Below are positions 18,922 through 36,424 of a stretch of DNA of 64,000 nucleotides, piece after piece. Every line of letters begins with the position of its first letter. Position 1 is the first letter of the stretch. Source of the stretch: a virus; IMG/VR virus record IMGVR_UViG_3300009158_000001, positions 96,001 through 160,000 of that record. One strand, 5' to 3'. Both the position numbers and the translations under genes were made by a program. The notes under the pieces were generated by a model that made no database searches, was not told the DNA's origin, and worked only from the letters and a program-made list of their open reading frames with translations.

Positions 18922-19185
18922 TAAAGTTTAAACTTTATTAACTTGATACCATAAGGAGCCTTATATATGTATAAGGACAAAACCTCTATATATATTTGGG
19001 GAAAAAATCTAGGGGAAAAGCTAGGGGGAAAGGGGTATAGGTCTGGGAAAGACGTAGACTTGCCTAAAGAACTCTATATAGGTTTATATATTTATATTTT
19101 TATTTTTATGGAAAAGAGTGGGTACTTTATATACTGGGACCCTTAAACAACCCATACCCCTATTCGTTTTAGCCCACCCCCTTTA
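18922..19185. other. divergent intergenic region with 16-bp palindrome, G-tract run and C-tract run; candidate packaging/terminus site
   Basis: TAAAGTTTAAACTTTA 18922-18937; G tracts at 18998, 19012, 19024, 19032, 19045; strand and composition switch here. Confidence 0.45.
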
Positions 19186-19268
19186 AACGTAAAACTCTGA
19201 CCGTTAGGGTGGGACATTGGGTTCCAAAAAGCCCTGCAATTGAGCAGGCACGCGTCTAGGAGTCTGCC

Positions 19269-22200
19269 ATGACTATTGCCCTTATCGTCCTCGCCATCTT
19301 CGTCTGCATTGTCATCCTTTCCAACACGGTGAGCTATCTCATGACCGCCAACAAGACCGCGCCCATCACCCCCGCCGAGGTTCGTATGAACAACAACAAC
19401 CACCCCCTCATCGTCCTGGCCATCGTCACCCTGGTTGTCATTGGTGGCCTTGTCACCTTCGGCATCGGCAAGACTGCTGGCCTGTGGGCTCAGCCCTCCT
19501 TCGAGGATCTCGTTGACCCCTACGCTGTCGCTGAGTATGAGCAGGTTGCCCTGCGCATTACCAGCTTCCCCCACCCTGGTGTTGGCCAGTACTCGCCTGA
19601 TGAGGGTACCAATTGCACGGGCTGGGCCTGGAAGGGCCACATGTACGGCATTACCCATTGTGATGTCGACACATACATCATTGGCAAGGAGACGGGTGAG
19701 ACCCCTGATCCAGTGGTCCGTATCAACACGGATCACGTTGTCAGTGTCCCTGTATTGGGCAATGACCTCTACACCGTTGGCATGGAATGCAGCCCTGACC
19801 TTCGCTGGTGGGGTGCTACCACTGGTGAGTGGCGTAACCTCGATTGGAGCGACATCGACGTTGAGACATTCAGCCCTAACAACCGCGCTGCTAGCCTCAT
19901 GCTTGAGCGCTGGCATGGTAGCGTAAACCGAGCACAGGACGCACTGGCTCAGCAGAACGAGTACAGCGCTAGCCTGTACACCAACACCGCCCTGTTCCAG
20001 CAGGGTGAGTGGGAGATCCTTAGCAAGGGTCAGCGCTACTGCTACGACAGCCAGGATGATGTGGTTGGCCATGGTGGCTGGTTCCGTAGTGGCGATAGCG
20101 GTGGTGTCCTTCTCGCAGGGGATGAGCCCATCGGCGCTGTTAGCTACAGCAACGGGTCTGAGACCCGCAACTGCTTCAGCGCAATTGCGTTGTCGCAGGA
20201 GAAGTCCTACCAGGACTTTGAGTTCCGGGAACTCTCTTCGACCACCATGGACCTGACTGGGAAGTTCAAGACCGCTGCTTCCCACTCGGGTATGCAGGGG
20301 CGGATTTTCCGTAGCCTCAACACCGAAACCACCAACGCCCATCAGGGCAAGGAGAATTTCATGCCTTACCTCATCCTCGCCATCCTCGGCCTCATCCTCG
20401 CTGCCGCCACCACGACCATCAAGGTCAAGGAGTTTCTCATGTCCAACCTTCGCACCATCGTCATTGGTTTCCTGATTGTCCTGGGCCTTGTGGTCCCGAT
20501 CGTTCTGGCGTGGAACCACGCCCTCACGGTTTGTCCTGTCACGGACGCATGGTTCAGTGTCAACTTTATGAACGGTGCCCTGGTTAGCATCGTCGTTGAA
20601 ATGGCTGCAATTGCGGCTGTTCTCGCCATGGCAACGCTTATCTCTGAGATGAGCTGCCCAAAGTGGATGGTTAAGCCTATCCTCGCCATCACCCCCAACC
20701 TTGCCACCATCACGGCCAATAAGGCCAAGGAGTCTGTCATGCCTATTCGCCTGTACATTGCAATCATCCTCACAATCGCCATCTTCGTCCCCATGGCGCT
20801 TATCGCCACCTTCCGAGAGGCCTTCGTGTGTATCTTGGGCCTTGGCCCCCTTGCATTCACGGCTATTGACCTCATTCTGCATGTGGAGTACCACTACCAT
20901 GTGCGTGAGCTTTCTATCGTGACCAAGAAGCTCATCGCCCACCAGAAGCTGCACAAGCTGCTCTTTGGCGGTATGGCTCTTCTCGCCATGGTTCTTGGTG
21001 GGTGCGGCGATACCATCCAGCAGGCTCCTGCTGGTATGGGCGAAATCGTCGCCGCTCACAACGGCGAATGCAGCGCCTTCCACTGGCAGGGCCAGATCAG
21101 GACGGCGGCTCACTGCACCTATGCCAGCACCGATTGGCGGGACAACGCAACAGCCGTTCTTCACCAGCAGCAAGGAAAGCATGCTATCCCAGAAGACTTG
21201 GCAGATATCGGCCAAGAGTGTAGCCCCGACCTGCGTTGGTGGGGTGCCACCACTGGTCGGACTCTGCCTGTGGAGGACGTCAAATTCTACGCTGTAAAGC
21301 GTGGGCAAAACGTCTGGGACCTTGGCGAACAAGTTCCTCCATGGACTCCTGGAGCACAGGCCTGCTTCACCCAGACCCTGCACAACCGCTTCTCCGACGG
21401 AGATAGCGGAGGACCCCTTCTCGCCGGTGATGAGCCGGTGGGCAGCGTCTCCTGGAGCAGCAACCTGCCTTGGGGCATGGCCTGCTTCGGCCGACTGGAA
21501 AAACAACCAATGTGGGGAAATCTCTCCACGTCTTCCCCGCAAGGGGGTAAGGGCTTCCGCATGAAGTCCATCGAAATGACTGACAGCCTCGCTGTCACTT
21601 TGACCCAGGTCTTCACGGACCTTGCCATTGCAGGAGCAATCCTGGCGCTGGCCTTCCTTCTGGCCCGAGTCCGGGCCAAGTTCCGCACGCACGACGAAAC
21701 CAACGCCGGCAATTCTGCTGGCCTCATTGGGGCTAAGAACCCCAGTAAGGGACACATGTCCCCCATTTTGGCCTTCGTGGCCCGCCTGACGAGCGTAATC
21801 GTCATCCTCCTCCTTGGTGTCTGCCTGCTGGCAGCACCCGGCGTGACCCCGCTGGTCTCTTCGAACAACAGCCCGACCATCGAGACGGGCATCGACCCTG
21901 AGGCCATTGCCAAGATTGTCCAGCGCTTGAAGAAGCGCCTGGCGTACGGCATGCGGATGGCCAAGAAGAAGCGGTGGACCGTGCGTCGCTTGAACCGCTG
22001 GCTCGTTGCAAACGGTTACAAGGCCAAGGCCAAGAAGGCCAAGAAGGCGGTCGCAAAGGCCGTTGTCAAGTTTGACCGTGCGGGTATGACCCGCCGTCAG
22101 CGTCGCGCAAAGGCCCATAAGGCCAAGGTTGCAGCAACGAAGGCAGAAACCAAGGCTCGTGGCGTTAAGCGCCGCGCAGAAGCCAAGGCAACGAACGACG

Positions 22201-25200
22201 CAATCGCCAAGCTGGAGGCTGCGATTGCCTTCCTCGGGCTCATTGCCCGCGTGGCCCGTCACCAACGGCGCATGGAAGTGTCGGCTGCGCGGTCGAAGCG
22301 CAAGGTGGCTCGCAAGGCCACTGCTAAGCCCGCCGCCAAGAAGATCATTGTCAGGGCCGAGGGTGCAGGTCGTCCCACCTTCCACCCCCGCCGCAGCAAA
22401 GTCCAGGGATACAACCCTGCCGCACAAAGCCGACAGGAGATCATCACCTCACGCGAAAAGCGGGAAGAGCGTCGCCTTGCACGCGAGGCTCGGCACCTCA
22501 CGCTCCTTAATAGGGCATATGCTGCCCTCCTCAACATGGTCGTTGAGGGAACGGCATTCAAAGCAGGCTGGACCCTTCGAGGTGCATGCATGCTGCTGGC
22601 GGACAACATGGCTTGGGTTGCCGCCCAGGCCGAGATCCAAACGTTCGATCAAGATGACGACGTGGCCTGGCAGTATGAGGCAGCCGTCCGCAACATCCCC
22701 TTCGAGATTAAGCGGGAGGTTGAGAACGCAGAGGTCGACGCAGCATGGGCGCTCATCGAGGCCAACGACAAGAAAGTCCTTGCCGAGATCAAGCAAGCGA
22801 ACGCTAAGGCGCGGGCCAAGAGGAAGGCAGAGCGTGAAGAGCGCATTGCCACTCACAGGGCGAAGGTCGACGCAGAGCGGGCCGAACGTGAAGCCGCCAA
22901 GGCCGTAAAGGCCGAAGAGCGCAGGAAGCGGGAAATGGCAAAGGCGGAGCGCCTGGTTGAAGCCCTCAAGGCCCGTGAGGCCAAGAAGGGCAAGACCACC
23001 AAGGTGGATGTTACTCCTGTGTCTCCCGTGGCTAAGCTGCGGGAAGTCCAGGCAAACAGCCCCGTTCTCGCCGTTGTCGCAGGTCTTGGGCTTGCGACTG
23101 GCATGGTGGCCGTTGCCGTCATTGCCCTTGCTGCAATTGCCTTCTTCGCTATTCGCAAGAATCGTGCCGAAGACTGCAAAGAAGAAACGGTCGACGCAGA
23201 TTGGGGCGATCTGCTTGAAGCTCCTGCTGAGCCACAGCCCCAGTCCCTGTTGCTGCGTCTGACAGAGCTCTTGGGCCAAGAGTCTCCTGCGCGGGAGGTT
23301 GTTGCATATGAACCTGCTCCTGCACCAGTTACTGTACCTGCCGAGCCAGAGCCGCAATCTCTTCTTGGGCGTCTTATTGAGCTTCTGCCTGAGGCTGAGG
23401 CGCGTGCTACTGAGCCTGCCACCTGCGCTTGCGGAATACCGCAGGAAGAAGGCTACGTCTGCGATACCTGCGTACTCAATGAGTATGCTGCTGGTATGGC
23501 AAATGCCCTCGAAAATGCGGTCGAAGAGTTTCCCTTCACCGATCCTGGTGACTGGGATGGCGGGGCAATCGATGACGTGTATGCGGCTCAGCTCATGGCG
23601 GCTGACCGTGAAGCCGCGCAACGCGATGCGGCAGACTTGGAAGAGCACCTGCAGGTTCTTGCGGCAGAAGCTGCTCTTGCAGACCTCGACCAGGAAGCAG
23701 AACAGGACATTGATCCGCTAGATCTTCTAGTGGAGAAGGCCAAGGAGGAAGAGATGGAAGAGGAAAAGACCCCTGAGCAGGTCTGGGCAGAAATCTGCAA
23801 TGAGCTGACGGTATCCCCTAGGAACTACTCGGCTAATGCTGCAATGAACATCTTGATTGAGATGTATCAGCGCAAGATTGACCTGTTCCGTTTCCGCCAT
23901 TTCGGCACTACTCGTACGTTCACCCGCAAAGACAAAGACGGGGATAGGCGTACCAGTAAGACAAAGACTCTGCGCAAGGACGTTATTGTCCGGTTTGCCA
24001 GCATCCTGCGTCAGGACAAGGAGATGGCAACGTGGTTTGCGGAAGCAAGTCACGATCCCTCTTGGGAGCAGTTCTGGGTTGGCATCGAGTCCCTTATGAA
24101 GGACAAGAAGCAGGCTTGGACTGCCCAGGATTGGCGTATCCTTCGAGCCAGGTACGAAGCGGCTGTCTTGGTCGTTAACGACCTCTGCATCGAGTTCCTC
24201 GGTCAGTCGAAGAGCAAGCCAAAGTTCATGGCAAGTGAAGTCTCTTGTCTTGTAACCAAAGACACCTTCCGCTACCGTGCAGTTGGTGCGCAGGAAGCGA
24301 TGGAAGCCTGCAAGCGCATTAACGCAAAGCACAAAGGTGGCTTCTGTGTGGCTCGTGGTGTCTACCAAGAGCAAATGCTTAGCGGCTCTCACCTGCCCTG
24401 GGTTGTTGATAAGGCTGACGGGGAAGGCAACTGGCTGGAGTTTGGCTTTGTTCTCACCACCAGCGCTGGTGTTGCAGACTGGGGCTTTGGCCGTGAAAAC
24501 CGCAACAATAGCAGTGTTGAGCTGAAGACTGCCACAGAAATGCTTGGTGGAATTGTCCAGCTTGATCAGTACAAGCCAGAACGTGCGTACATCGAGATGT
24601 TCCACAAGAACTGGACCTTGATGAAGAAGCCCAGCCTTAACGACTGGAAGACTTTCATTAAGACAGCCTTTGCCAATGGCAACATGTTATTCATTAACCC
24701 AACGACAATGGATACCAGGCATGTCGCCAAGAACGGCACCAGTTACAGTAAGTCTGTAACTGACAATGGCACAACAGCCAGCACGGTCCATACTTTCTTC
24801 AACGATGGTAGCGTGACCACGGTAATGACGCGCAAGACTCTTGATGCAAATTCGAAAGGCTTTGCTCACAAGTTCAGCAGTGCGCGGACGACTATCAGGA
24901 AGTTCTTCTTGAAACACTCTGGTATTCGTGATCTCAAGGTTCTTCCTTGGGAAGTTGTCGAAAGCCGAGATGAGCTGGCAACAAAGTTTGGCAATGAGTC
25001 GTATGACCAATACCAGGCATGCCGTAAAGCAATCTCTGCTGATCGCAATCATCGGCTAGACGTTGTAGTTCTTAGCCGCGTGAACAATGCACGGTTTGAG
25101 GCTTGGGCTACTGAGTATGTGCAGAATAAGCAATCATCGGTTGTTTATCACATCAAGACTCGGCAGCCTTTGACGCTCAGCCAGCTCAACAAGCAGAATA

Positions 25201-28200
25201 AGGCCCTTGCAAAGCTGCAGGGTAATTACTTCTTGGCTCAAACTGAGTTGGAAACTAGCCGCGCTGGTATTGCAGCCATTAGGCATACGATTGAGACGAG
25301 TGCTTATACGTCTCAAGAACTGTCTTCTGATTTGATTGAGGCCTTCAAAGAAGGTTACCAATGGATGAAGACTCCTGGTGGCTATCAGTTGGTTAGCGCA
25401 AGAAAAGCTGCAGCAAACCCAGAGAAGATTCTCAAGGGCGAAGCTCTTGCTGCTGTGCTGGATGCGTGGATCAAGACTGCCATTGACGTTCAGGCAGACT
25501 CTCTTCGCGCAGAGGGTGCGAAGATTGTGCGCAGGTACGAAGAAGCACTTCAGCTTCTGCTTCCTGGGTACAGCTGCAAGGTCAATGGTGAGGATTGTCT
25601 CATGGCTGCATACAATAAAGCAGAACATGCGAAAAAGACAGACCCCAGCAATCCTGAGATTGCCTTGCTTCTTGCAGCGTACTATGCGGAGTACGAGAAA
25701 GAGCAAGCGGAGTACGAGAATGAGCAAGCGAAAATCCAAGCGCGTTACGAGAAAACCCATAAGGAATGTCAGGAGTATGAGCAGCGCGTTAAGGAGCAGG
25801 AAGGATGGGATGAAATCCCGTTCTGTAAAGCAGGTGCCGTTCTTTCGGCATTGGCTCTTGCAGCTGGGCTTCCTGCCTTCGTGGTAGTGTTGCCGCTTGC
25901 ACTGACGGCACTGGCTGCTTTCATGAAGATGGAAAACTCTGACGTTGAAGGTGAGGAGATCCTCGCTGACAATGCAGAGTTCTGCCTGTACAGTACACCA
26001 ATTGTCCGTCACACAACAGGCAAGTGGACTGCAGTCAAAGACAACAACACTGGGGAATCCGCCCCAGTCGAAGCTGGCGAAAGCCAGAAGGAGAAGCCCA
26101 TGAGCTTCCTTGACAAGATGAACCAGACCATCCGAAATGTCTGGAACGAGCTCACCGGCCGTGAGAGAATTGGTACTGACGTGAAGACCAAGGCACCTGC
26201 CACGTACGGCTCTATCCTTGCTGCCAGCAAGGTTGAGCACACGGCACTTACCCGTATCTGCGGTGGTAAGATCCGTGAGATGCAAGTCACCGAACTCAGC
26301 AGTGAAGAGCTGCGTGAGATCAAAGACTTCATCCGCCGTGATGGTGACACCTGGATCATTGTCCGCGACTCTCAGAAGTTCCACTTCCCGAACTGGGCAA
26401 TGGAGAAGCTGGTGTCTGAGATTGTGATTGCAGGTCACGCTGTCGACAAGAAGGTCAGCCAGCAGGAAGTGAATAAGTATTTCGGCAGCTTGCTTTGGGC
26501 TCCTGCTGAGATTGTTTCCTTCCAGGCTAGCGAAGCCAAGGTCATGAGTGATGGGCTTGCCGCCATGTACGACGGTACCAACCTGATGAGCGATGAGCTT
26601 GCATCGACTATCGACTGGGTTGGCTATGCAATTCGTCGACTGCTTACGGTACTCGGCTTGTTCAAGGGTATGTTCATTATCCTTCCTGCTGGGTACTTCC
26701 CGTCTGGGGTCAAGCTATTCGGCAGTGAGGTGAAGAAGCACCTTCGTCTGCGTCGGGATAGCGGTCGTGCACTTGCACTGCAGCCTCAGGCTAACGGTCA
26801 CAGTGATGTGGCTAGGACTCTAGGCATGCAGCTTTGGTCCATGCTGTTGGGCCCCTGGATTGCTAGTGTTGGTTTTGCCAATCTAGCGAAGGGAGCGTAC
26901 GGCTATGCAATGTCGAACCTGAACAAGGCTAATGAGCGTCTTCTTGCTCCTGCAGAGGAAGAAGAAGAAGGCCGCGATGCCTTGATGGCTGAGGCTAGCC
27001 GCCTGCACGGGTTCAATCCAATTGCTGTATTCAGGTCTTTTGCGACCAGCATGGCAAACGGGCTCACGAAGTCCTTCAATCCCAACAAGGTGAACATTGC
27101 ACCTGTTGACGAGAAGGGCAGAAGCCTTGTGCCAAACGGCTATCCGATGATGCTGCCTTGGCTTGCGCTGGCAGAGCTGTGGCTCAAGGTCACGGGCAAA
27201 GTGCCAGAAGAGCTTGCTAAGAAGGTTGAAGATACCGAAAAGCTTCGTCTGCGGCTCTTTAAGCTTGCGAACGGCGCAATTCCAGTGCTTGTGCACAACA
27301 TGCACCGCCTTGATGCGGCTAAGGTTGCAGGCATTCGTCGCATGGCTATTGCTGCTATTGCGACTCGCATCCCGACTGGCAAGACCAGCGGTATCGAGGT
27401 TATGCTCTTCGACGCAGAAGAGTATGGGGCAGATCTACTGCCTGAGATCGTTGGCCGTAAGAAGAACGACATTGAGTTCTGGCTCTTCCCTTGCGAGGAG
27501 ACCACGGCCTTCAAGGTTGCTTCTGAGGGCGGCGACGACGACGACCTGTACGAGTTCCTCCTGGGAATTCTGCACAAGCTGGCTCGCCTTGGCCTTGAGT
27601 GGCGGGCAAAGATCCTCGATGTGAGTGCCGATACGCAAAAGGCCATGGACGAAATCAAAGTTCGCTTTGCTCGTCAGGTGGCAGCATTCAAAGAAGACCG
27701 TAAGCTTCTTGCAAAGCTGATGGAGATGCCTTATGCAAAAGTCTTCACGGCAAATGGCAAGGTCAGGGCAGGCTGGCCGTCTCTCTTGGGTGTTACCATG
27801 GCACCAGGTGGATGGCAGATCCGTCACACGGAAGCTGTTGAAGATATCATCGTGATGACCGAGGAGTCCCGTGAAGATATCGCCACCCAGGCTCGCCTCT
27901 TTGCTGAGGTAATGACAGCAAACAACGACAGCCCGTTCACCAGCGCCATTGGCACTGTTGCGCAGAGCCACAAGTTTGCCACTGGCATCTTGACTGGAAA
28001 CGTTGTGCTGACGAACAGTATCGGTGCTCTGGATAAGATCTGGGCACTCTTTGTTCTTGCTACCATTCTGCTGTCGGATATGGTAGACGCTTGCAACAAG
28101 GGCAAGAAGTACGCAGAGGCTGGTGCTGCACTCATGTACCTTAACTGGGCATGGGGCTGGCTGTGCTATCGTATTGCTAGCAATCCAGATGCTAAGGTTA

Positions 28201-30560
28201 TCTGCCCTGCGCAGTATCTAGTATCTGTGCCTCCTGCTGCCAAAGAGCTGTTCAACGCACGTCATGCTAATAAGATGACTGTTGATGGCAAAGTTGTTCA
28301 GCCGGGCAAGCTTCTCAACAATCTCTATGAGAACCATAGAGAGCTTGGCGAGACGGTCGAGGCTATGATCCGCGAAGAGCACAACCGTGCTGAGTTCTCG
28401 GCTACGGTAACTGCGATGCTTCAGACTGTTAGCGTTCCTGTGCCTGGGGCTGCTTCTGCTCAGGGTATGGGCTCGGAAGTCTGGGCTGAAGTCTGGACTG
28501 CAAGCGGCCGCAAGAAGATCTACCTGGATGGTCTCAAGCAGAAGTCTGCTATGAGGTTCGAAGACATTCGGGCAGAGCAGCGTTACATGGCAGAACTCAA
28601 CAATGCAACCGTCTACGCAGCACATGCTGAGTTTGACCGTATTGTCATGGGTCGCCTTGTGAAAGCTGATCCTAACGCTACTAGTGAGGAGATTGCAGCT
28701 ATGTTCAAGCTTTGCAAGCTTGGCATGGTCTACTCGTATGCTTTCAAGACTGTTGGCTACGAAGAGAACTGCGTCAAGATCCTTATGGATGAAGAGGGAG
28801 AGTTCGGCGCTTCTGGCGGCGTTCCTACCTACATCATCCCTGTCAGCGGCAACTGCACCTTTATCGGCAACTTTGCAGGTAGCAGCGAGATCCTCCTTGA
28901 GTGGATGATGAATCCTGCTACACTCGCACTTGTTGCTGAGATCAAAGCCAAGGCTGGCGACTTCAAGTACGTCGTTCTCTCCATGAAGGGTGAAGCCTTT
29001 GGAGAGATGATTGACGGCGGTCGTGACCTCAGGTACAGCGAGGCTGACTTTGATGGCAAATCCATCACGGAGATCCTCTGTATGCCTGGCGTTGCTCTTG
29101 CTGGCAATCAGCGTGAAGAAAGCCACGTTGATCAGAGCACCTGGCTTGCAAGTGTAGCAGACACGGTCACGCAACGTCGCAACGACATTCTTCGCAAGCT
29201 GAAGGCGGAGAACAAAGCAGCAGAAGCATTGCTTCGCGGCAAGACTTTCGGAGAGCTTCTTCAGGAGTTCAACGTAACGGTCGTCGCAGAGTCCGTCACT
29301 GGCACTGCCAAGGTCGAAAAGATCGAGGCGTTCAAGTGGATGGACAAGAAGCATGCGGGTCGTACGTACCCAAACACCTTTGTCATTGTTCGCTTCGGGA
29401 ATGAAGCAGATCCTGTGACTGAGGAGATGGAAGAGGATGATATTACCATCTTCCTTGCTGACGAAGTGATTGAGGCTGCTCCTGACACCAAGGAGAACAT
29501 TACGATCGAGGCCTCTGCTCCTGTGGTTGAAAAGACTGCAGAAGCAAAAAAAGACAGCATAAGCGATAAGCTCAACCGCATCTTCGGCAAGAAGGAGGCT
29601 GTTAAGCCCCCTGCTCCTATCGAAGTCGTGCCTGCTGCTGTTGTTGCGGCTGCTACTGGACAAGAGGAGCTCAAGATCCTGAGCATTTCTGAGCCTGCCT
29701 TTGCGAAAGAAGGATGGTCCCAGACCAGCGAAGGAAAGCTTGTGCGCCGCACTTTCAGCAAGACCAAAGTCAAGGAAGTCTTTGCTGCTGGCTGGAACTT
29801 CTGCTTCTGCGAGGGCGATGGAGACAAGTGGGTCATTGCAGACACCCGCTTTGGTTTTGTCATTGGCCGCGGACAGACTCAGGTCATAGCGTTGCAAAGG
29901 GCAATTGCAAACACCCAGGCTGCTAAGGTTGGACGCAACCTTCTTGACGAAGTCCAGTTCTCGAACTGGCTCTTTGACCGTGCAACTCAGGCTCAGCGTC
30001 CGCTTGTTGACCTGATTGCAGAGCACAACAAGAAGGAAGAGCCCGTGGCCGAGGCAACTCCTGCTACTCCTGTTGTTGTCGCAGAGACTGCTGGTACTAA
30101 GCCTACTAGCCGTTGCGTTGGTAACTTCGCATTGGCTGGCCTTCAGCACTCTAGTAACGTCAATGTTGCTGAGCGTGAGCTTGTTGAGGGCGTAAAGATT
30201 ACTCTCATCCGCAATGTGGCTCACCCCAAGGATGCAAATGCCGTTGAGGTCCATGTGAATGGTTACCGCTTCGGGTATGTTCCTAAGGAAGCCGCTGCAA
30301 GGCTGGCTCCTCGGATGGACATCGGCGTGAAGGCGTGGGCCATTGTCACGGGATGGGAAAACGGGTACGCCCGCTTCGATCTGTTCCTTGGCAAGACGCC
30401 CACTACCTTGGAGACGTTCAACTACCAGCGTGACGAAATCGAGCGTGCATGCGAGGGGCTTGCCTGGCTGGAGTCGTACGACGCGACCGATGAACAGAAG
30501 GCTCCGGCTAATGCCCTCCTTGCGCACTTTGCTGCCCTTTGTGGTAGCCTTAAGCTCTGA
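19269..30560 (+). CDS. 3763-aa polyprotein: TM segments, two trypsin-like serine proteases, YonO/RdRP-like double-psi-barrel RNA polymerase, HIRAN domain
   Basis: GITHC...GDSGG and TAAHC...GDSGG; YDGTNLMSDELA, IRR...FKGM, TRIP, GGDDDD, SAIG, SDMVDACNKG in cellular-RdRP order; HPKDANAVEV...FGYVP (HIRAN). Confidence 0.75.
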   Translation: MTIALIVLAIFVCIVILSNTVSYLMTANKTAPITPAEVRMNNNNHPLIVLAIVTLVVIGGLVTFGIGKTAGLWAQPSFEDLVDPYAVAEYEQVALRITSFPHPGVGQYSPDEGTNCTGWAWKGHMYGITHCDVDTYIIGKETGETPDPVVRINTDHVVSVPVLGNDLYTVGMECSPDLRWWGATTGEWRNLDWSDIDVETFSPNNRAASLMLERWHGSVNRAQDALAQQNEYSASLYTNTALFQQGEWEILSKGQRYCYDSQDDVVGHGGWFRSGDSGGVLLAGDEPIGAVSYSNGSETRNCFSAIALSQEKSYQDFEFRELSSTTMDLTGKFKTAASHSGMQGRIFRSLNTETTNAHQGKENFMPYLILAILGLILAAATTTIKVKEFLMSNLRTIVIGFLIVLGLVVPIVLAWNHALTVCPVTDAWFSVNFMNGALVSIVVEMAAIAAVLAMATLISEMSCPKWMVKPILAITPNLATITANKAKESVMPIRLYIAIILTIAIFVPMALIATFREAFVCILGLGPLAFTAIDLILHVEYHYHVRELSIVTKKLIAHQKLHKLLFGGMALLAMVLGGCGDTIQQAPAGMGEIVAAHNGECSAFHWQGQIRTAAHCTYASTDWRDNATAVLHQQQGKHAIPEDLADIGQECSPDLRWWGATTGRTLPVEDVKFYAVKRGQNVWDLGEQVPPWTPGAQACFTQTLHNRFSDGDSGGPLLAGDEPVGSVSWSSNLPWGMACFGRLEKQPMWGNLSTSSPQGGKGFRMKSIEMTDSLAVTLTQVFTDLAIAGAILALAFLLARVRAKFRTHDETNAGNSAGLIGAKNPSKGHMSPILAFVARLTSVIVILLLGVCLLAAPGVTPLVSSNNSPTIETGIDPEAIAKIVQRLKKRLAYGMRMAKKKRWTVRRLNRWLVANGYKAKAKKAKKAVAKAVVKFDRAGMTRRQRRAKAHKAKVAATKAETKARGVKRRAEAKATNDAIAKLEAAIAFLGLIARVARHQRRMEVSAARSKRKVARKATAKPAAKKIIVRAEGAGRPTFHPRRSKVQGYNPAAQSRQEIITSREKREERRLAREARHLTLLNRAYAALLNMVVEGTAFKAGWTLRGACMLLADNMAWVAAQAEIQTFDQDDDVAWQYEAAVRNIPFEIKREVENAEVDAAWALIEANDKKVLAEIKQANAKARAKRKAEREERIATHRAKVDAERAEREAAKAVKAEERRKREMAKAERLVEALKAREAKKGKTTKVDVTPVSPVAKLREVQANSPVLAVVAGLGLATGMVAVAVIALAAIAFFAIRKNRAEDCKEETVDADWGDLLEAPAEPQPQSLLLRLTELLGQESPAREVVAYEPAPAPVTVPAEPEPQSLLGRLIELLPEAEARATEPATCACGIPQEEGYVCDTCVLNEYAAGMANALENAVEEFPFTDPGDWDGGAIDDVYAAQLMAADREAAQRDAADLEEHLQVLAAEAALADLDQEAEQDIDPLDLLVEKAKEEEMEEEKTPEQVWAEICNELTVSPRNYSANAAMNILIEMYQRKIDLFRFRHFGTTRTFTRKDKDGDRRTSKTKTLRKDVIVRFASILRQDKEMATWFAEASHDPSWEQFWVGIESLMKDKKQAWTAQDWRILRARYEAAVLVVNDLCIEFLGQSKSKPKFMASEVSCLVTKDTFRYRAVGAQEAMEACKRINAKHKGGFCVARGVYQEQMLSGSHLPWVVDKADGEGNWLEFGFVLTTSAGVADWGFGRENRNNSSVELKTATEMLGGIVQLDQYKPERAYIEMFHKNWTLMKKPSLNDWKTFIKTAFANGNMLFINPTTMDTRHVAKNGTSYSKSVTDNGTTASTVHTFFNDGSVTTVMTRKTLDANSKGFAHKFSSARTTIRKFFLKHSGIRDLKVLPWEVVESRDELATKFGNESYDQYQACRKAISADRNHRLDVVVLSRVNNARFEAWATEYVQNKQSSVVYHIKTRQPLTLSQLNKQNKALAKLQGNYFLAQTELETSRAGIAAIRHTIETSAYTSQELSSDLIEAFKEGYQWMKTPGGYQLVSARKAAANPEKILKGEALAAVLDAWIKTAIDVQADSLRAEGAKIVRRYEEALQLLLPGYSCKVNGEDCLMAAYNKAEHAKKTDPSNPEIALLLAAYYAEYEKEQAEYENEQAKIQARYEKTHKECQEYEQRVKEQEGWDEIPFCKAGAVLSALALAAGLPAFVVVLPLALTALAAFMKMENSDVEGEEILADNAEFCLYSTPIVRHTTGKWTAVKDNNTGESAPVEAGESQKEKPMSFLDKMNQTIRNVWNELTGRERIGTDVKTKAPATYGSILAASKVEHTALTRICGGKIREMQVTELSSEELREIKDFIRRDGDTWIIVRDSQKFHFPNWAMEKLVSEIVIAGHAVDKKVSQQEVNKYFGSLLWAPAEIVSFQASEAKVMSDGLAAMYDGTNLMSDELASTIDWVGYAIRRLLTVLGLFKGMFIILPAGYFPSGVKLFGSEVKKHLRLRRDSGRALALQPQANGHSDVARTLGMQLWSMLLGPWIASVGFANLAKGAYGYAMSNLNKANERLLAPAEEEEEGRDALMAEASRLHGFNPIAVFRSFATSMANGLTKSFNPNKVNIAPVDEKGRSLVPNGYPMMLPWLALAELWLKVTGKVPEELAKKVEDTEKLRLRLFKLANGAIPVLVHNMHRLDAAKVAGIRRMAIAAIATRIPTGKTSGIEVMLFDAEEYGADLLPEIVGRKKNDIEFWLFPCEETTAFKVASEGGDDDDLYEFLLGILHKLARLGLEWRAKILDVSADTQKAMDEIKVRFARQVAAFKEDRKLLAKLMEMPYAKVFTANGKVRAGWPSLLGVTMAPGGWQIRHTEAVEDIIVMTEESREDIATQARLFAEVMTANNDSPFTSAIGTVAQSHKFATGILTGNVVLTNSIGALDKIWALFVLATILLSDMVDACNKGKKYAEAGAALMYLNWAWGWLCYRIASNPDAKVICPAQYLVSVPPAAKELFNARHANKMTVDGKVVQPGKLLNNLYENHRELGETVEAMIREEHNRAEFSATVTAMLQTVSVPVPGAASAQGMGSEVWAEVWTASGRKKIYLDGLKQKSAMRFEDIRAEQRYMAELNNATVYAAHAEFDRIVMGRLVKADPNATSEEIAAMFKLCKLGMVYSYAFKTVGYEENCVKILMDEEGEFGASGGVPTYIIPVSGNCTFIGNFAGSSEILLEWMMNPATLALVAEIKAKAGDFKYVVLSMKGEAFGEMIDGGRDLRYSEADFDGKSITEILCMPGVALAGNQREESHVDQSTWLASVADTVTQRRNDILRKLKAENKAAEALLRGKTFGELLQEFNVTVVAESVTGTAKVEKIEAFKWMDKKHAGRTYPNTFVIVRFGNEADPVTEEMEEDDITIFLADEVIEAAPDTKENITIEASAPVVEKTAEAKKDSISDKLNRIFGKKEAVKPPAPIEVVPAAVVAAATGQEELKILSISEPAFAKEGWSQTSEGKLVRRTFSKTKVKEVFAAGWNFCFCEGDGDKWVIADTRFGFVIGRGQTQVIALQRAIANTQAAKVGRNLLDEVQFSNWLFDRATQAQRPLVDLIAEHNKKEEPVAEATPATPVVVAETAGTKPTSRCVGNFALAGLQHSSNVNVAERELVEGVKITLIRNVAHPKDANAVEVHVNGYRFGYVPKEAAARLAPRMDIGVKAWAIVTGWENGYARFDLFLGKTPTTLETFNYQRDEIERACEGLAWLESYDATDEQKAPANALLAHFAALCGSLKL

Positions 30561-30582
30561 GGTTACTATGAAGGAGATCCTC

Positions 30583-30840
30583 ATGAAGTACATGGGTGGT
30601 GCTAAGTATCCTGGTCCTTGCCGCAATTGCAGCCGCTACTGTGGTTGTGATACACTGCGGCTCTTCCGAGATGACCGATATAAGGCAGCGAAGTGGGTCA
30701 CAATCTGCACAGATTGCTGTGAAGAATGGGATGCCCGCTTCAACAAGCCCAAGGCCATTGTGGCTCCTCAACCTGCTCCTGTAAAGGAAGTGAAGGTTGT
30801 GGAAGTCGCTAAGCCAAAGCAACTTTCGTTGTTCGGCTAG
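30583..30840 (+). CDS. small Zn-finger protein ending in beta-clamp-binding motif QLSLF
   Basis: AAGGAG SD at 30571; CRNC...C..C and CTDCC; C-terminal QLSLFG. Confidence 0.7.
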   Translation: MKYMGGAKYPGPCRNCSRYCGCDTLRLFRDDRYKAAKWVTICTDCCEEWDARFNKPKAIVAPQPAPVKEVKVVEVAKPKQLSLFG

Positions 30841-30884
30841 AGAACTGACAGTTTGAACTAAAGCCCTATTCTACAACCCTTTTC

Positions 30885-30913
30885 AAAAGAGCTCACTTTG
30901 TGAGCTTTTTTTT
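30885..30913 (+). terminator. intrinsic terminator of the polyprotein operon
   Basis: AAAAGAGCTCAC-TTT-GTGAGCTTTTTTTT. Confidence 0.8.
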
Positions 30914-31225
30914 ACTACTTACTTACAGAGGCCAAACGACTCCGCTACTCCGCTCCCCCTCGAAAGCCTGTGTGTATTTTGTAATTTCTGCACCCCCTTG
31001 GAGAGGCTCCTGCGTCGCCCAGAGCATTGTAGGCTTCGCTCCCTGGCAACAAAGCTAGACCAACGAGAGGTCTGGTGGGCCTCCTGCGTCGGCCAGATAT
31101 AGTGAGCGTTCACGCTTGCTATACTGGCGGATCCGTCCCAGTAGATGCGAGAGATAACGGATAGGTACCTCCCAAACGTCTACCTTGTCGGGTGTGGGAA
31201 GGCCGAAAACGCTGACAAGGAAAGA

Positions 31226-31260
31226 ACCTCTGGCCTCACGGCTGGGGGTTCTTTTTTTTC
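31226..31260 (+). terminator. intrinsic terminator
   Basis: AACCTCTGGCC-TCAC-GGCTGGGGGTT followed by T-run. Confidence 0.75.
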
Positions 31261-31524
31261 CACTCCGCTGAATAACCAGATAACTTGTGGCAACCAGGGG
31301 TCTTACGAGGCTCCTTCGTCGCCCAAAGCATCGGATGGTGGCTGCCGCTACCCGTATCAGAGAAGGCCTGTCGGTCTCTGGTATGTATCAGACAGGGGCG
31401 GTTGCCAGTCCGCCTAACAGAAAAACTGGCCGTCATCCCCTTTAGGATGGCATGTTTACGTCCCCTCTTGGACGGGTTCCTGGTAGTGGTAATCCTACTT
31501 ACTGCGTACCAGGATAGAGAGGTA

Positions 31525-31563
31525 AAGCCCCAGCACAGTAGGATGTGTTGGGGTTTTATTTTT
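31525..31563 (+). terminator. intrinsic terminator
   Basis: AAGCCCCAGCAC...GTGTTGGGGTTTTATTTTT. Confidence 0.7.
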
Positions 31564-31747
31564 GTTACTCCGCTATATAAGTAGATTACTAGTAACTATA
31601 TAGTGGTTTGTTGGCGGCTCCTACGTCGCCCAAAGCACTGGGCGTTGACGCTCTGCCATCTCCGTTGGTAGAGACTAGCTTTAAAACACGGGGAGTCCCA
31701 GGTCGGCCTTACGGGCTTGGATAAGACTATTGGCAGAAGGACAGATT

Positions 31748-31781
31748 CCCACTACTAGGCCGGTAGTGGGTTTCTTTTTTT
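31748..31781 (+). terminator. intrinsic terminator
   Basis: CCCACTACT-AGGCC-GGTAGTGGG followed by T-run. Confidence 0.75.
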
Positions 31782-31843
31782 GGCCTCCTTCGTCGGCCAG
31801 AGATTATGAGGCACTTTCGCCTCTCGGTCCTTAGGAGGACACC

Positions 31844-32056
31844 ATGAAGGCAGGTAAGTATCACTCGTACGACTGGCGAACCGAGCGGGATGCGGATGCT
31901 GATAGGAGCGTCTTCGTCCAGGCCTGGAAAGCCAAGTTCCCTGGGGTCGTGCCGCAGTTCGCCATCATCCTGGATGACGGCAGTTGCCACTGGTGGAACG
32001 AATGGCCAGACGGGCGGACTCGGCGGCTTCCGCCTAGCACATTCAAGATCGGCTAA
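31844..32056 (+). CDS. hypothetical early protein
   Basis: AGGAGG SD; lies between a hairpin motif and a terminator. Confidence 0.75.
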   Translation: MKAGKYHSYDWRTERDADADRSVFVQAWKAKFPGVVPQFAIILDDGSCHWWNEWPDGRTRRLPPSTFKIG

Positions 32057-32061
32057 AGATA

Positions 32062-32095
32062 GACCCTCGGCTTCGGTTGGGGGTTTTTCTTTTCT
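32062..32095 (+). terminator. intrinsic terminator, cUUCGg loop
   Basis: ACCCTCGGC-TTCG-GTTGGGGGT plus T-run. Confidence 0.8.
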
Positions 32096-32480
32096 CACTC
32101 CGCTACACAGTGGGGTGGCTCCAGCTCCCGGACTCTTCGGCGGTCAGCAGGTAGGAACCCAATAGCAAAAAGAGGCGAAAAAATATAGACTCCGCTATAG
32201 GCCGGAAAGGTTATATCAACTAGTAGTGTTGAGAGCTCCTGCGTCGCCTAAGTGTTGTGAGGTAATCGCGGACCTCTTAGTCATGTTCCAACCCTGGGGA
32301 GCATGATGAGCCTAGTTAGACAAGGCAAAACGAACAAAGGGAGTAGGTGTCCATCCGCCGAAGTTAAGAGCACCTGTACGCGGGACTCGGGATGGAACTC
32401 ATGTGCTGGATCTCCTAAGGAGGCACATGTTTAAACAGAAGAGGGGATGACCTGCGCATGTCACAAAACTGCCCCAATTT

Positions 32481-32515
32481 TAACCCTCTGGCTTCGGTCG
32501 GAGGGTTTTTCTTTT
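32481..32515 (+). terminator. intrinsic terminator, cUUCGg loop
   Basis: AACCCTCTGGC-TTCG-GTCGGAGGGTT plus T-run. Confidence 0.8.
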
Positions 32516-32573
32516 GGCCTCCTGCGTCGTCCAGAGAAAGTGGGCAACTTTCGCCCCAAACGGAGAAGAGAAC

Positions 32574-32753
32574 ATGCAGTACGATCTTACAGTGACACAA
32601 AGCCCCAGCGGACTCGTATACTTTCGGGTATACAGCAAAGAGACCGGTGATTGCAAGTGCATCCTGAGCATCGACCCCAAGGACGGGTCTCTCGAGGCGG
32701 CAACGGGTGACGAGGAGTTCACGGGCTACTCCATCGTTGGAGAACTCGTCTAA
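32574..32753 (+). CDS. hypothetical early protein
   Basis: GGAG SD, MQYDLTVTQS...; followed by a terminator. Confidence 0.7.
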   Translation: MQYDLTVTQSPSGLVYFRVYSKETGDCKCILSIDPKDGSLEAATGDEEFTGYSIVGELV

Positions 32754-32757
32754 GAGA

Positions 32758-32788
32758 GACCCTGGCTTCGGCTGGGGTTTCTTTTTTC
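32758..32788 (+). terminator. intrinsic terminator, cUUCGg loop
   Basis: ACCCTGGC-TTCG-GCTGGGGT plus T-run. Confidence 0.8.
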
Positions 32789-32847
32789 AGGCTCCTTCGT
32801 CGCCCAAGGAAAATGGGTAATGTCACCCTTCCTTTACGGAGTCGAAG

Positions 32848-33252
32848 ATGAACAGTGTCAATTTTGTCGGGTTTCTTACTTCCACCCATAAGGAAGTGGG
32901 CGATGTCCTCTGTGTCGTCGTGAAGAGTGTCGATGGGAACAGTGCTCCCACTGTGCGTTTCACGGGCAAGCAGCGTGAGGCTCTCAAGAAGTGGGGCACC
33001 CCCGGACGTCTTGTGAGCATCAGTGGCAGCTTCGGAACGGAGGTGAATGGCAAGGTGAAGGACTCCTTCATCGCCTGCGCCTACAGCCGTTTCTTGGACA
33101 AGCAGGAGACTGTGGCTAAGGCTGCTGCTCCTGTTGCGGCACCTGTCGTGGCTGCTGCACCTGTCAAGGCTGCAAAGGCTCCCAAGGCTGCAAAGGCCAC
33201 AAAGGCTGCTCCTCCCGCGAATGTCGATCCTGACGACGTTCCGTGGGCGTAA
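32848..33252 (+). CDS. divergent single-stranded DNA-binding (OB-fold) protein
   Basis: MNSVNFVGFL start, GRLVSISG strand, AKA-rich linker, acidic tail DDVPW. Confidence 0.6.
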   Translation: MNSVNFVGFLTSTHKEVGDVLCVVVKSVDGNSAPTVRFTGKQREALKKWGTPGRLVSISGSFGTEVNGKVKDSFIACAYSRFLDKQETVAKAAAPVAAPVVAAAPVKAAKAPKAAKATKAAPPANVDPDDVPWA

Positions 33253-33255
33253 CTA

Positions 33256-33287
33256 ACCCCTGGCTTCGGCTGGGGGTTCTTTTTCTT
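33256..33287 (+). terminator. intrinsic terminator, cUUCGg loop
   Basis: AACCCCTGGC-TTCG-GCTGGGGGTT plus T-run. Confidence 0.8.
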
Positions 33288-33434
33288 GACTCCGCTATGG
33301 GCCGGTGCAGTTCCAGCTCCGAGACGTCTGGCGGCTGTCAGGGAGAAGACCATCATCAAAAAGAGGCGAAAATAAATGGGCTCCTGCGTCGCCTAGGTAC
33401 AGTGAGGGTTTGTCCTCGTTGCCAGGAGTCTGTC

Positions 33435-33575
33435 ATGTTTGAGAAAGTGTCGCTTGAAGACTGTTACGGTATCGCTGTGGGTGGTGAGGACGAGATGATC
33501 GCCCGCATCGACGAGGCCAATGAGTACGTGTACAACCACGATGAGTTGGATGACTTCGACTACAGCGAAGGTTGA
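33435..33575 (+). CDS. small acidic hypothetical protein (46 aa)
   Basis: AGGAG SD, MFEKVSLEDC...; followed by a GAAA-loop terminator. Confidence 0.6.
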   Translation: MFEKVSLEDCYGIAVGGEDEMIARIDEANEYVYNHDELDDFDYSEG

Positions 33576-33639
33576 AGAGATGGCCCGAAAGGGTCTTTTC
33601 TTTTCTAAGACAAAGGGGCCTCCTGCGTCGGCCATATGT

Positions 33640-34078
33640 CTTGAGTCTCGGCTCTACAGTTTACGGCGTCGAGTAGGTTACATTGCGAATAATAGGGGAT
33701 GTAAACCCTATTGCTCGTACTGCAAGACGTCATCCTTTGAGAGTTTACTAGTAAAATCATAAGTGCGCCTGCCGCTTATGGGAACCTAGTGAGAGTCAGG
33801 GTTGCAAACCTGGCTATAACAAATAGGCTGACTATTATGGGACCCTGCCCTGGTAGTTATATGAACATGGGGTGGTCTGCTGCAGCGGGCCTTTGATCAG
33901 TCGGGTGTTCGCTATACAGATACTGAACGGGTGACCACGCCCACAGTTGAGTGCAAGGCTCAGCAATTAGGATTCCTACGAGAAGGGTTCAATCCCCTTT
34001 TTCATCGGCCACATGCCATGTAGGGTTCAGTATCAGCGCAATGTATGGCTATGGGTTCGAGTCCCATATGATTGAATT
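33640..34078 (+). ncRNA. structured non-coding region with several tRNA T-arm-like hairpins
   Basis: GAAGGG-TTCAAT-CCCCTT at 33982, ATGGG-TTCGAGT-CCCAT at 34051; no convincing ORF; follows the hairpin motif at 33618. Confidence 0.45.
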
Positions 34079-34105
34079 ACTTTACACCGTCCTAAGGAGG
34101 ACAAC

Positions 34106-34684
34106 ATGGATAAGAGCATGATCTTCAATTTCAATACCGTTGTCTTGTTTGCGACCGAGATCGCCAAGAGGATGAACTTCCTGGGATACGATACGACCTA
34201 CAGCGTCTCTATGACCGAGTTCAGTGGCCCGACCATCTCGGCTGCCATCAGGGGCAACACCGAGAAAGAAGGGTGGTACATTGTGGAGCACGGGATGTTC
34301 CATGATGCGCACAAAGGCTTCGAGGTCAATTTCACGATTGGCCTCCCCAGCGCAGAGGGTGAGTACATCTCCGAGTGGGTGAAGGCCAAGATCAACAGGA
34401 TCCGCCTCCGTGACTGCTTGGAGATCAACGAGACCCTGTACTCCGTTCCGACTCTGGAAGTTTACTCGGAGCGGTTTGGAGGGACGTATGCTTTCTACAG
34501 TGCAATCCCCACCTTGACGAAACACTTCGACTTCACGGTCAAGAACGTCAAGGGTGACATGGATGGCCTCATCGATCTGTTCTGGGGACAGAAGGGCCTC
34601 CTCAGCAAGATTGAAGACCCCGACTGTGCAATCGAAGAGTTCAACAACCTCCTGGTTGAGTTGGGCGATTCTGTCTCGTCCTAG
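34106..34684 (+). CDS. hypothetical protein
   Basis: 192 aa, AAGGAGG SD. Confidence 0.8.
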   Translation: MDKSMIFNFNTVVLFATEIAKRMNFLGYDTTYSVSMTEFSGPTISAAIRGNTEKEGWYIVEHGMFHDAHKGFEVNFTIGLPSAEGEYISEWVKAKINRIRLRDCLEINETLYSVPTLEVYSERFGGTYAFYSAIPTLTKHFDFTVKNVKGDMDGLIDLFWGQKGLLSKIEDPDCAIEEFNNLLVELGDSVSS

Positions 34685-34771
34685 TAGTCCAATAGGTCCA
34701 CAGCCTGCAACCTGCCCGTTGGTAGGCTAACCTATCAGATGTCATGTCTGGTAGCCACAAAGGCTGCATCA

Positions 34772-34813
34772 CTTCCTTATGGTAATAGATAGGTTCGAAT
34801 CCTATCAGGAAGA
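34772..34813 (+). ncRNA. minimal tRNA-like element (acceptor-like stem plus T arm, no anticodon arm)
   Basis: CTTCCT...ATAGG-TTCGAAT-CCTAT-C-AGGAAG. Confidence 0.4.
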
Positions 34814-34839
34814 CTTTACCCCCTTATATAGGTGACAAG

Positions 34840-35043
34840 ATGAAACATGTGCCCGGACATAGTTCGATGGATGAGCAGGCTATGGAGACTGTAATCTCTC
34901 ATGGGAAGTTTCTTCTTGAGAGAGCAAATGCAGTACTACATTTATATCCCCAGCTCCAAGAGTATAGGGATGCACTGGTAGAGATGCAGAAGTATGCCGA
35001 GAAGGCAATGGATAATGGACACTTCCCCGATTCCGACCTCTAA
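34840..35043 (+). CDS. hypothetical protein
   Basis: 67 aa, AGGTG SD. Confidence 0.6.
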   Translation: MKHVPGHSSMDEQAMETVISHGKFLLERANAVLHLYPQLQEYRDALVEMQKYAEKAMDNGHFPDSDL

Positions 35044-35061
35044 CGTCCTTAGGAGGACACC

Positions 35062-35244
35062 ATGCGAATAAAGCATAACATTATCGTTACGTGGAAAGAT
35101 TGTGACAAGGGGTGCTGCGAGGACTATAGGGTATTCCAGTTCTCTGGTAGTCCCGGACAGGCAATTAGGTTTTCCCAAGAGGTAGCAAAACTTCATCCTA
35201 CTACATTCCGTATTAGGATCTATCAATACGACAACGAGGAATAA
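35062..35244 (+). CDS. hypothetical protein
   Basis: AGGAGG SD. Confidence 0.65.
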   Translation: MRIKHNIIVTWKDCDKGCCEDYRVFQFSGSPGQAIRFSQEVAKLHPTTFRIRIYQYDNEE

Positions 35245-35246
35245 TC

Positions 35247-36274: not shown

Positions 36275-36424
36275 ATGAAGATTACATTCAATGTTAACGA
36301 GTCCTTCGCTGAGGTTCATAGCCTTGGCTTCGCAACAACTTGCCTTCTTTTTGCCAGTCTCATCTCTGGCATCTCTTACTGGATCATCGCAGCAGTGATG
36401 TTCTTTGATTCCAGTTACGTATAG
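36275..36424 (+). CDS. small membrane protein
   Basis: GGAG SD, hydrophobic helix. Confidence 0.5.
   Translation: MKITFNVNESFAEVHSLGFATTCLLFASLISGISYWIIAAVMFFDSSYV

Follow-up and report, generated by a model that had tools for sequence, protein, structure and literature searches.

We analysed a stretch of 64,000 nucleotides (nt; hereafter the window), comprising bases 96001-160000 of one 174,107-bp phage contig (IMG/VR record IMGVR_UViG_3300009158_000001), in which a giant open reading frame (ORF; P0001) carries a predicted RNA polymerase in its C-terminal part. None of its 3763 codons is an in-frame stop, whereas some 150 stops per frame would be expected from base composition and the other two plus-strand frames contain 92 and 232. 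The original prediction had read this ORF as an operon without stop codons, in which at least eight in-frame ATGs, each with a Shine-Dalgarno (SD) sequence, open successive coding segments. All eight ATGs are present and in frame with the giant ORF. Five follow a strong SD (AAGGAG or AAGGAGG, the spacer being 6 nt counted from the hexamer AAGGAG: 20361, 20439, 20739, 23754 and 26100), but the other three have only a weak one (19386, GAGGT with a 4-nt spacer; 21561, AAGG with 8 nt; 21756, AAGG with 5 nt), such that "at least eight" overstated the count. As in a polycistronic operon, an SD and a start stand ahead of each cistron, with the five strong and three weak sites located at module seams; the stop that should end each cistron is absent from the giant ORF but present in two related loci, L006 and L004. 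We conclude with high confidence that the ORF is a real and selected fusion derived from separate genes, and, judging from sequence comparison, we consider it likely (a probability of roughly 0.7) that ribosomes also initiate internally, at four to six sites.

The hexamer AAGGAG occurs 10 times in the giant ORF, always as a Lys-Glu codon pair, and half of these copies (5/10) belong to the peptide K-E-x-x-M, with methionine making up just 2.6% of residues. As the original prediction anticipated, the five strong sites exceed the number obtained by shuffling codon order (mean 0.91, P=0.0045; mean 0.70 and P=0.002 under a second motif definition), and loose 4-nt SD cores show a marginal excess (17 observed, 11.4 in shuffles, P=0.06). 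Across both strands of the 174-kb genome we found 22 copies of AAGGAG-N5-8-ATG, 16 of them outside the giant ORF; 14 of these 16 occupy start-like positions, and one more stands at the head of the next gene downstream of the giant ORF. The shorter form AGGAG-N6-ATG has 13 of its 22 genome copies within the GC-rich island that contains the ORF, marking the motif as the island's own type of ribosome-binding site, and its 6-nt spacer makes it read in phase as x-Glu-x-x-Met. The surroundings of the sites also agree with what had been claimed for them. The 37 nt before the SD are 65-76% A+C at 19386, 20361, 20439 and 20739, values that reach or exceed the 95th percentile for in-frame ATGs as a whole, and hydrophobic, transmembrane (TM)- or signal-like helices follow M1, M40, M365, M391, M491, M569 and M830.

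To identify relatives we took residues 1-1200 and the C-terminal part as queries, which recovered syntenic phage contigs of 150-176 kb; loci that include the junction upstream of the ORF share the same minus-strand neighbours, an SNase-bearing protein of ~1300 amino acids (aa) and one of ~440 aa. The suspicion that formerly separate genes had been joined was borne out, since L006 and L004 encode the same modules as individual genes. L006 has six called genes (130, 290, 176, 137, 506 and 1944 aa), with an SD and ATG at each start except that of the 137-aa gene, and L004 has nine genes in which stop and start overlap, including a separate 665-aa gene for the globular module that follows 23754 in the window. 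Partly fused arrangements were found in L007 (two genes, 806 and 2836 aa), L001 (two genes in different frames, 591 and 2088 aa) and L010 (one 1416-aa gene), and P0021 is a free-standing polymerase of 1179 aa. L002 (3725 aa, 86% identical) and L003 (3963 aa, a mosaic) are fully fused single ORFs. The N-terminal modules of L002 stand in a different order; L003 is 91% identical over residues 1-355, but its TM block is replaced by a metallophosphatase cassette and its polymerase is only 26% identical, and each of the two rearranged ORFs remains one open frame. The domains joined to the polymerase vary among L008, L009, L006 and L004, with DprA, SLOG/YpsA, NADAR, DUF4326 or metallophosphatase on the N-terminal side; in L006 a PIF1-type helicase takes the place of HIRAN on the C-terminal side.

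Several internal methionines correspond to the starts of genes that stand alone elsewhere. M40 falls within a residue or two of the N-terminus of P0011, a stand-alone protease (290 aa, at L006 10001, with its own SD and an upstream stop; BLAST places its residue 6 at residue 47 of the giant-ORF product, P1, and local alignment its residue 5 at 46). M391 is homologous to the methionine that opens the giant ORF of L002, where a stop lies 3 codons upstream, and M491 corresponds within a residue or two to the start of P0020, whose residue 4 is placed at P1 residue 493. The match of M2278 to the start of the 1944-aa gene of L006, whose ATG is overlapped by the upstream TAA, is approximate (BLAST places L006 residue 22 at P1 2310; the local alignment is weak, score 36). 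The start signals are shared as well: AAGGAG-N6-ATG is kept at the joint homologous to 20739 in L002 (849), L007 (7936) and L004 (10142), and at the 21756 joint a methionine is present in all six aligned relatives, preceded in L001 by a strong AAGGAG-N6-ATG (2934).

Conservation extends furthest at the joint that opens the polymerase. There, (A/C/G)AGGAG-N6-ATG occurs in nine fused loci (this window, L002, L001, L008, L009, L003, L007, L011 and L012) from at least five lineages with 20-94% identity between their polymerase modules. The SD is read as different residues (QKEKP, QEEKP, PKEEG, AKEGK, NQEVN, NQEVK, AKEVK, QKEGK), and the linker before it ranges from a few to ~60 residues. This pattern indicates, at the level of sequence, that the binding sites at the 20739 and 26100 joints are under purifying selection over large distances. 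The CTGGC-GAAA-GCCAG hairpin that had been noticed ahead of 26100 is real (26074-26087, with a GAAA loop) and is accompanied by a second one at 26049-26068; the two fold together with a free energy (dG) of -22.1 kcal/mol (z -3.6), in a structure that keeps the SD and ATG free of base pairs. In L002 and L008, the stem CTGGGG/CCCCAG of the upstream hairpin becomes CTGAGG/CCTCAG and CGGAG/CTCCG, and CTGGC/GCCAG of the downstream one becomes GGGC/GCCC, amounting to compensatory changes in three pairs of the former and one of the latter, with altered encoded residues (GESAPV vs EESPSV). Because paired stem changes alter residues, the stretch behaves as an RNA leader while remaining open and in frame, and the comparison of four sequences is suggestive of hairpins kept at the expense of the protein. 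Pairs of hairpins like these also lie ahead of 21561 and 21756, and the region before 21756 has a dG of -26.3 (z -3.3).

One joint also reveals how separate genes could have come into a single frame. The unfused joint in L006 and L004 reads GGAGGT(T)AATCAGTAATG, and the fused joint in L003 and L007, whose polymerases share a divergent clade with that of L006, reads GGAGGTTAA(T/A)ATG. Between the two lies a 5-nt indel, through which the TAA is lost and the overlapping frame downstream falls into phase with the upstream one; the SD is retained. We infer from these sequences that the change was fusion rather than fission, because the start signals are retained and export signals are sensible at N-termini only. 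The accompanying tree was a quick one, unrooted with respect to the direction of fusion, and its deep joins (L003, L006, L007) are long-branched and unsure. The features of the ORF are collected in Table 1.

Table 1. Features of the giant ORF and of its internal start sites (window coordinates).
Feature	Position	Strand	Remarks
Giant ORF P0001	19269..30560	+	3763 codons; first plus-strand gene past the AT-rich divergent junction; inside the GC island
Ribosome-binding site and ATG of the ORF	19256..19271	+	TAGGAG, 6 nt; opens a 39-aa TM peptide module
Module M40-364	19386..20360	+	TM helix and trypsin-like protease 1 (GDSGG); internal ATG with weak SD, A+C-rich leader
Internal site AAGGAG-N6-ATG, M365	20349..20363	+	Opens a 26-aa TM peptide
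Internal site AAGGAG-N6-ATG, M391	20427..20441	+	Opens a ~100-aa multi-TM module
Internal site AAGGAG-N6-ATG, M491 (KESVM)	20727..20741	+	Opens a 2-TM module
Module M569-765	20973..21563	+	Lipoprotein-signal-like segment and trypsin-like protease 2
Internal ATG, M765	21561..21563	+	Weak, distant SD; hairpin upstream; uncertain start
Two hairpins (21705-21722, 21726-21746), weak SD TAAGGG and ATG, M830	21705..21758	+	Open a TM helix and Lys/Arg-rich module
AAGGAGG-N5-ATG, M1496	23742..23756	+	Precedes a ~680-aa globular module (23754-25808)
TM helix pair, then conserved F/W-x-L-Y-S-G/T-P	25815..25934	+	Upstream of the polymerase joint
Conserved, putative initiation region of the polymerase module	26049..26102	+	Hairpin 1 26049-26068, hairpin 2 26074-26087, AAGGAG 26088-26093, 6 nt, ATG 26100 (M2278)
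Predicted two-barrel single-chain RNA polymerase module	26100..29468	+	R2700-x-P2702 at 27366-27374; G-x-D-x-D-D at 27528-27545
HIRAN domain, C-terminal	30126..30347	+	Pfam PF08797, 33.6-37.1 bits, cutoff 24.7

A number of observations weigh against internal initiation, at individual sites or in general. Neither the SD nor the ATG of the 23754 site is present in L002 and L003, the two closest giant relatives, an absence that fits the earlier caution that the site might be a by-product of encoding KEEEM, and the SD at 21561 is weak and distant. L010 and its close kin fuse a membrane anchor to the polymerase without any SD, the conserved L-H-S-G-L-P of L010 leading straight into the polymerase, and an internal start is therefore not obligatory for this enzyme. 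Peptides just upstream of two joints are conserved (F/W-x-L-Y-S-G-P after the TM pair, and KEGKGFRM), so translation that reads through the joints matters too. Synonymous shuffles, which hold the protein fixed, yield 2.75 strong sites against the 5 observed (P=0.065), implying that part of the signal in this one genome sits in the K-E-x-x-M peptide. The stretch from SD to ATG is more open at the eight sites than at 89 other in-frame ATGs (Mann-Whitney U test, p=0.003), in a comparison that is biased because the sites were chosen for purine-richness. Finally, the use of SD sequences is evidenced solely by the phage's own gene starts.

These points bear on two other accounts of the joints. The ribosome-binding sites could be functionless relics, in which case one polyprotein would be made from 19269, threaded into the membrane and cut by signal peptidases I and II together with the two embedded proteases, in the manner of flavivirus-type polyproteins or of phage polyvalent proteins. 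A stop-free frame under selection, the presence of proteases and of internal signal-like or lipobox segments, and the peptide motifs conserved directly upstream of some joints all suit such a scheme, as do the SD-less polymerase joint of L010 and the unconserved 23754 site. However, a neutral relic would not be kept as the SD and ATG at 26100 and 20739 are, at 26-39% protein identity and despite changes in the residues and lengths of the linkers; the leader hairpins have been retained through compensatory changes that alter the protein; and an accessible strong SD and AUG is expected to initiate in any bacterium that uses SD sequences. We therefore regard relic sites as unlikely. It is less plausible still, and in our view quite improbable, that K-E-x-x-M is a feature of the peptide, such as a cap before a membrane helix, whose likeness to an SD follows from the preferred codons AAG and GAG. 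The synonymous shuffles, the ten of ten AAGGAG hexamers that are Lys-Glu codon pairs and the TM helices that follow three of the sites speak for it, but the motif lies untranslated where a stop occurs 3 codons before the starts of this ORF and of L001, L002 and L003, and where one occurs 10-11 codons before the starts at L006 10001, L002 11763 and L003 18350. Moreover, GGAG is constant at the polymerase joint despite differing residues (K/Q/E at -4, any at -2/-1), no TM helix follows there, and the motif predicts gene starts across the genome.

That the giant ORF is an artefact, whether of chimeric assembly, of sequencing errors that removed stops or of an alternative genetic code, we consider hardly credible. 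The sequence is indeed a metagenome assembly, and the 50-63% GC of the ORF is unlike the 36-42% in the rest of the genome. Nevertheless, the GC island and its position after the same divergent junction recur in L003, L004, L006, L007, L010 and L011, independent assemblies yield single ORFs of 3725 and 3963 aa, and a contig from another sample preserves the frame. This last contig (7.8 kb), from another lake and ~5% diverged, covers 22458-30316 and differs in length only by indels that sum to multiples of three. An alternative code is further disfavoured since there is no in-frame stop of any kind, and hence no recoding is required.

Combining these results, we propose that the giant ORF (11.3 kb) represents the early operon of a family of freshwater tailed phages with genomes of roughly 150-176 kb, in which, in this lineage, every cistron would have been joined in frame and every stop lost. 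Its former cistrons would have encoded a number of short membrane peptides, two trypsin-like proteases led by signal- or lipoprotein-like segments, a Lys/Arg-rich and a globular product, and finally a two-barrel RNA polymerase fused to HIRAN. Their joints retain the binding site typical of the GC-rich early region, (A/C/G)AGGAG, 6 nt and ATG. By internal initiation, ribosomes would load at 19269 and additionally at internal sites, for which 20361, 20439, 20739 and 26100 are the best candidates and to which 19386 and 21756 probably belong. There is no stop before 30558, and therefore all products would be C-coterminal and include the polymerase. A start at 26100 would give a free polymerase-HIRAN protein of 1486 aa, while upstream starts would give membrane-tethered precursors that open with membrane or signal-like segments. 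Such precursors would need to be cut into the units that relatives make separately, candidate cutters being host signal peptidases (at the lipobox LGGC, residues 576-579) and perhaps the two GDSGG modules. The linker AGGAGTCTG(C/T)CATG at the start of the giant ORF also heads the ORFs of L001, L002 and L003 and recurs at internal joints, and it may serve as an in-phase recombination point; a linker of this kind would permit modules to be swapped between phages with the frame intact, as the mosaic relatives suggest.

By analogy with Thermus phage P23-45, the giant ORF would be an early or pre-early transcription unit. We suggest only tentatively, and hold it to be possible rather than probable, that the stop-free state was itself selected, turning a (pre-)early operon of about ten genes into in-phase cassettes, each of a leader, a ribosome-binding site and a stop-less ORF. 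In that event all ribosomes would reach the polymerase end, and the first transcript would be covered and proof against polarity, Rho and nucleases; both a membrane-tethered and a free polymerase would be made; cassettes could be exchanged at a conserved 14-nt linker with its binding site, the frame never being broken; and the leaders would be dual-coded, as linker peptide and as constrained RNA. More broadly, if internal initiation is true, operon and polyprotein organisation would coexist in one gene of a bacterial virus, a clear natural case. The relatives show every intermediate state, which opens the transition from cistrons to a fused frame to direct study, a 5-nt indel accomplishing it at one joint, and the production of a membrane-anchored and a free phage RNA polymerase from one frame is a testable model. 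The comparison of four sequences also suggests that stretches taken as "coding" may hold RNA structure conserved at the protein's expense. For annotation the locus serves as a warning, as gene callers split such ORFs or miss internal products: P0008 and P0002 are giant ORFs truncated at internal SD and ATG sites (P0002 is a database protein 100% identical to the product of the giant ORF, and itself a truncated gene call), and the ORF of L003 (6425-18316) was cut at an internal ATG, with antisense ORFs of 561 and 634 aa called in its GC-rich part.

Among the modules, both protease-like segments contain GDSGG and have the His surroundings TAAHC and ITHC, and their matches in the Protein Data Bank (PDB) are restricted to the Ser loop. 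With a cutoff of 20.6 bits, the Pfam Trypsin model scored 22.7 bits for module 2 scanned alone, over only 25 residues, and 17.5 bits in the whole protein; it gave no match in module 1. The two are paralogues that have in common the unusual motif E-C-S-P-D-L-R-W-W-G-A-T-T-G, which is found also in the stand-alone homologues P0011, P0015, P0017 and P0018. A lipoprotein signal-like motif occupies residues 558-579 (KLHK..., LGGC), with the lipobox LGGC of residues 576-579 at nt 20994-21005. In the giant ORF it would be N-terminal only if ribosomes started at M569, an ATG lacking an SD; its L003 counterpart comes directly after an AAGGAG-N6-ATG. Scans of the whole protein with PHROGs and Pfam returned only HIRAN and the weak trypsin match, and scans of segments added nothing for residues 40-364, 866-1500 and 1496-2190. 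A search by eye for a cleavage motif shared by module ends found none except the conserved L-Y-S-G-P before the polymerase joint. The TM pair with F/W-x-L-Y(H)-S-G-P that precedes the polymerase (25815-26000) is present in most relatives, including L008, L009, L011 and L010, the minimal 1416-aa form, which suggests a membrane-anchored polymerase precursor or a cleavage site.

The polymerase that had been placed after 26100 could be assigned by fold. An AlphaFold2 model of residues 2278-3450, built from a 16-sequence alignment, reached a predicted local distance difference test score (pLDDT) of 82 and a predicted template modelling score (pTM) of 0.72. Foldseek matched it to QDE-1 (2j7n, E 1.8e-7, probability 1.0), and VIA gave Z scores of 13.6 for RDR2, 11.3-11.6 for QDE-1, P32 gp64 and P74 gp62, and 10.0 for P23-45 gp96, with matches covering 300-650 residues and the next tier at Z <= 7.2. 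The module is thus predicted to fold as an RNA polymerase with two double-psi beta-barrels, of the QDE-1/gp64 type, and not as a T7-like single-subunit enzyme. R2700-x-P2702 is invariant in the 16 sequences. An R-x-P motif lies ~50 residues before the metal loop in known enzymes (NRAPTLH in beta-prime, RSP in QDE-1). G-x-D-x-D-D (2754-2759) is likewise invariant in the 16 aligned relatives (GGDDDD, GADLDD, GMDNDD, GGDVDD) and is a candidate metal loop, with Asp at the first and third positions of the DxDxD pattern, its final acidic residue at position 4 rather than 5, and no literal DxDxD; the loop of QDE-1 is GGDYDGD. A profile of the polymerase alignment found no polymerase among PDB sequences. 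Its sole match there was weak, to the kinase catalytic-loop region of 7jv7 (E 8.5e-5; residues ~3036-3172, window ~28374-28784), and may be due to chance.

Shorter proteins produced by internal initiation inside a phage gene have well-known precedents in lambda C/Nu3, T7 gene 4A/4B and phiX174 A/A*. As would be the case here, an in-frame SD and ATG within the ORF gives a shorter, C-coterminal protein beside the long one; in those cases, however, one internal start lies within one functional protein, whereas here five to eight lie where unrelated former genes meet. A second likeness is offered by translationally coupled operons (TAATG or ATGA), and L006 and L004 have exactly that layout with the same SD; the giant ORF differs in that all stops are gone and all cistrons share one frame. 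Polyproteins of flavi-like RNA viruses combine internal signal or anchor segments with a chymotrypsin-fold protease in a single chain, and they would resemble the giant ORF in both respects, but without bacterial ribosome-binding sites at their joints.

The nearest concept to the giant ORF is the polyvalent protein. Polyvalent proteins of phages and conjugative elements are giant and multi-domain, with up to 15 modules and embedded peptidases, and have been proposed to enter the host in the virion together with the DNA (PMC5512222; Iyer, Burroughs, Anand, de Souza and Aravind 2017). The giant ORF likewise joins many unrelated domains in one polypeptide, including embedded peptidase-like modules, and its content varies among relatives, in which DprA, SLOG/YpsA, NADAR, DUF4326, metallophosphatase and PIF1 helicase modules are swapped. 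Unlike polyvalent proteins, it heads an early-type operon, and its modules carry export signals and retained ribosome-binding sites; the early-operon position and the export signals would argue against packaging of its product in the virion. Term searches of that text gave no mention of transmembrane segments, of trypsin-type peptidases or of "separate genes"; they likewise brought up nothing about export signals, about ribosome-binding sites that have been retained or about relatives with an unfused operon, and the two hits for "internal" are unrelated to translation starts (PMC5512222).

For the polymerase, the closest parallel is Thermus phage P23-45, where gp64 is a non-virion two-barrel RNA polymerase encoded by a pre-early gene, one of the first to be expressed, with kin in P74-26 gp62 and P32 gp64, and where a second, virion polymerase is fused to the tape measure (PMC10770324). 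The module has the same fold as the gp64 kin (VIA Z 11.3 over 421-458 residues), but gp64 is a stand-alone protein of ~600 aa with DxDxD, while here a ~1100-aa module with an invariant D-x-D-D is fused to HIRAN and to 2277 upstream codons. The original prediction had also offered a purpose, unbroken translation against Rho along the first DNA to enter the cell, for which the pre-early polymerase gene of P23-45 would be the sole parallel, by analogy (PMC10770324). Outside the window, a 1957-aa ORF on the minus strand (genome 63898-69771) contains NKTSADFDHD at residue 1435 and may, on the analogy of P23-45, encode a second, virion-type two-barrel RNA polymerase.

The contig that carries the window repeats ~77 bases at its first and last ends, which fits a circular or permuted assembly, and its sequence is contained in freshwater and lake metagenomes; a look for RNA runs containing it returned none. 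Its terminase has distant kin in Moorella phage MTATph1 and Bacillus phage 0305phi8-36. In the window, a minus-strand block reaching up to 18919 comprises the terminase and several proteins of 700-1300 aa, and a 350-bp AT-rich gap follows. The GC island (50-63%, against 36-42% elsewhere) begins exactly at this divergent junction, extends for ~20 kb (19000-39000) over the giant ORF and the small genes downstream, and is located at the same place in all relatives examined that include the junction (L003, L004, L006, L007, L010 and L011). Antisense ORFs in the window reach 1094 aa (19143-22427, minus strand) and are by-products of GC-rich third positions. Megablast with the giant ORF and tblastn with the polymerase module found no match among 50,697 phage records; pattern-based scans with a single protein or with an alignment found none at first and later one locus each, in IMG/VR and JGI metagenomes.

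Within the giant ORF, sigma-70 promoter-like sites show no excess (7, against 6.1 ± 2.9 in shuffles), and terminator-like hairpins number 18 against 11.8 ± 3.1 (~2 standard deviations), 14 of the 18 being on the minus strand. The 9-mer TCCTNCGTC has 18 copies in the window, where 1.0 is expected. We rejected it as an explanation of the joints, as its single copy within the ORF (24004) lies away from any joint. Sixteen copies stand on the plus strand downstream of the giant ORF, spanning 31008-50428 and falling mostly between small genes, and these could be promoters or processing sites for the phage polymerase.

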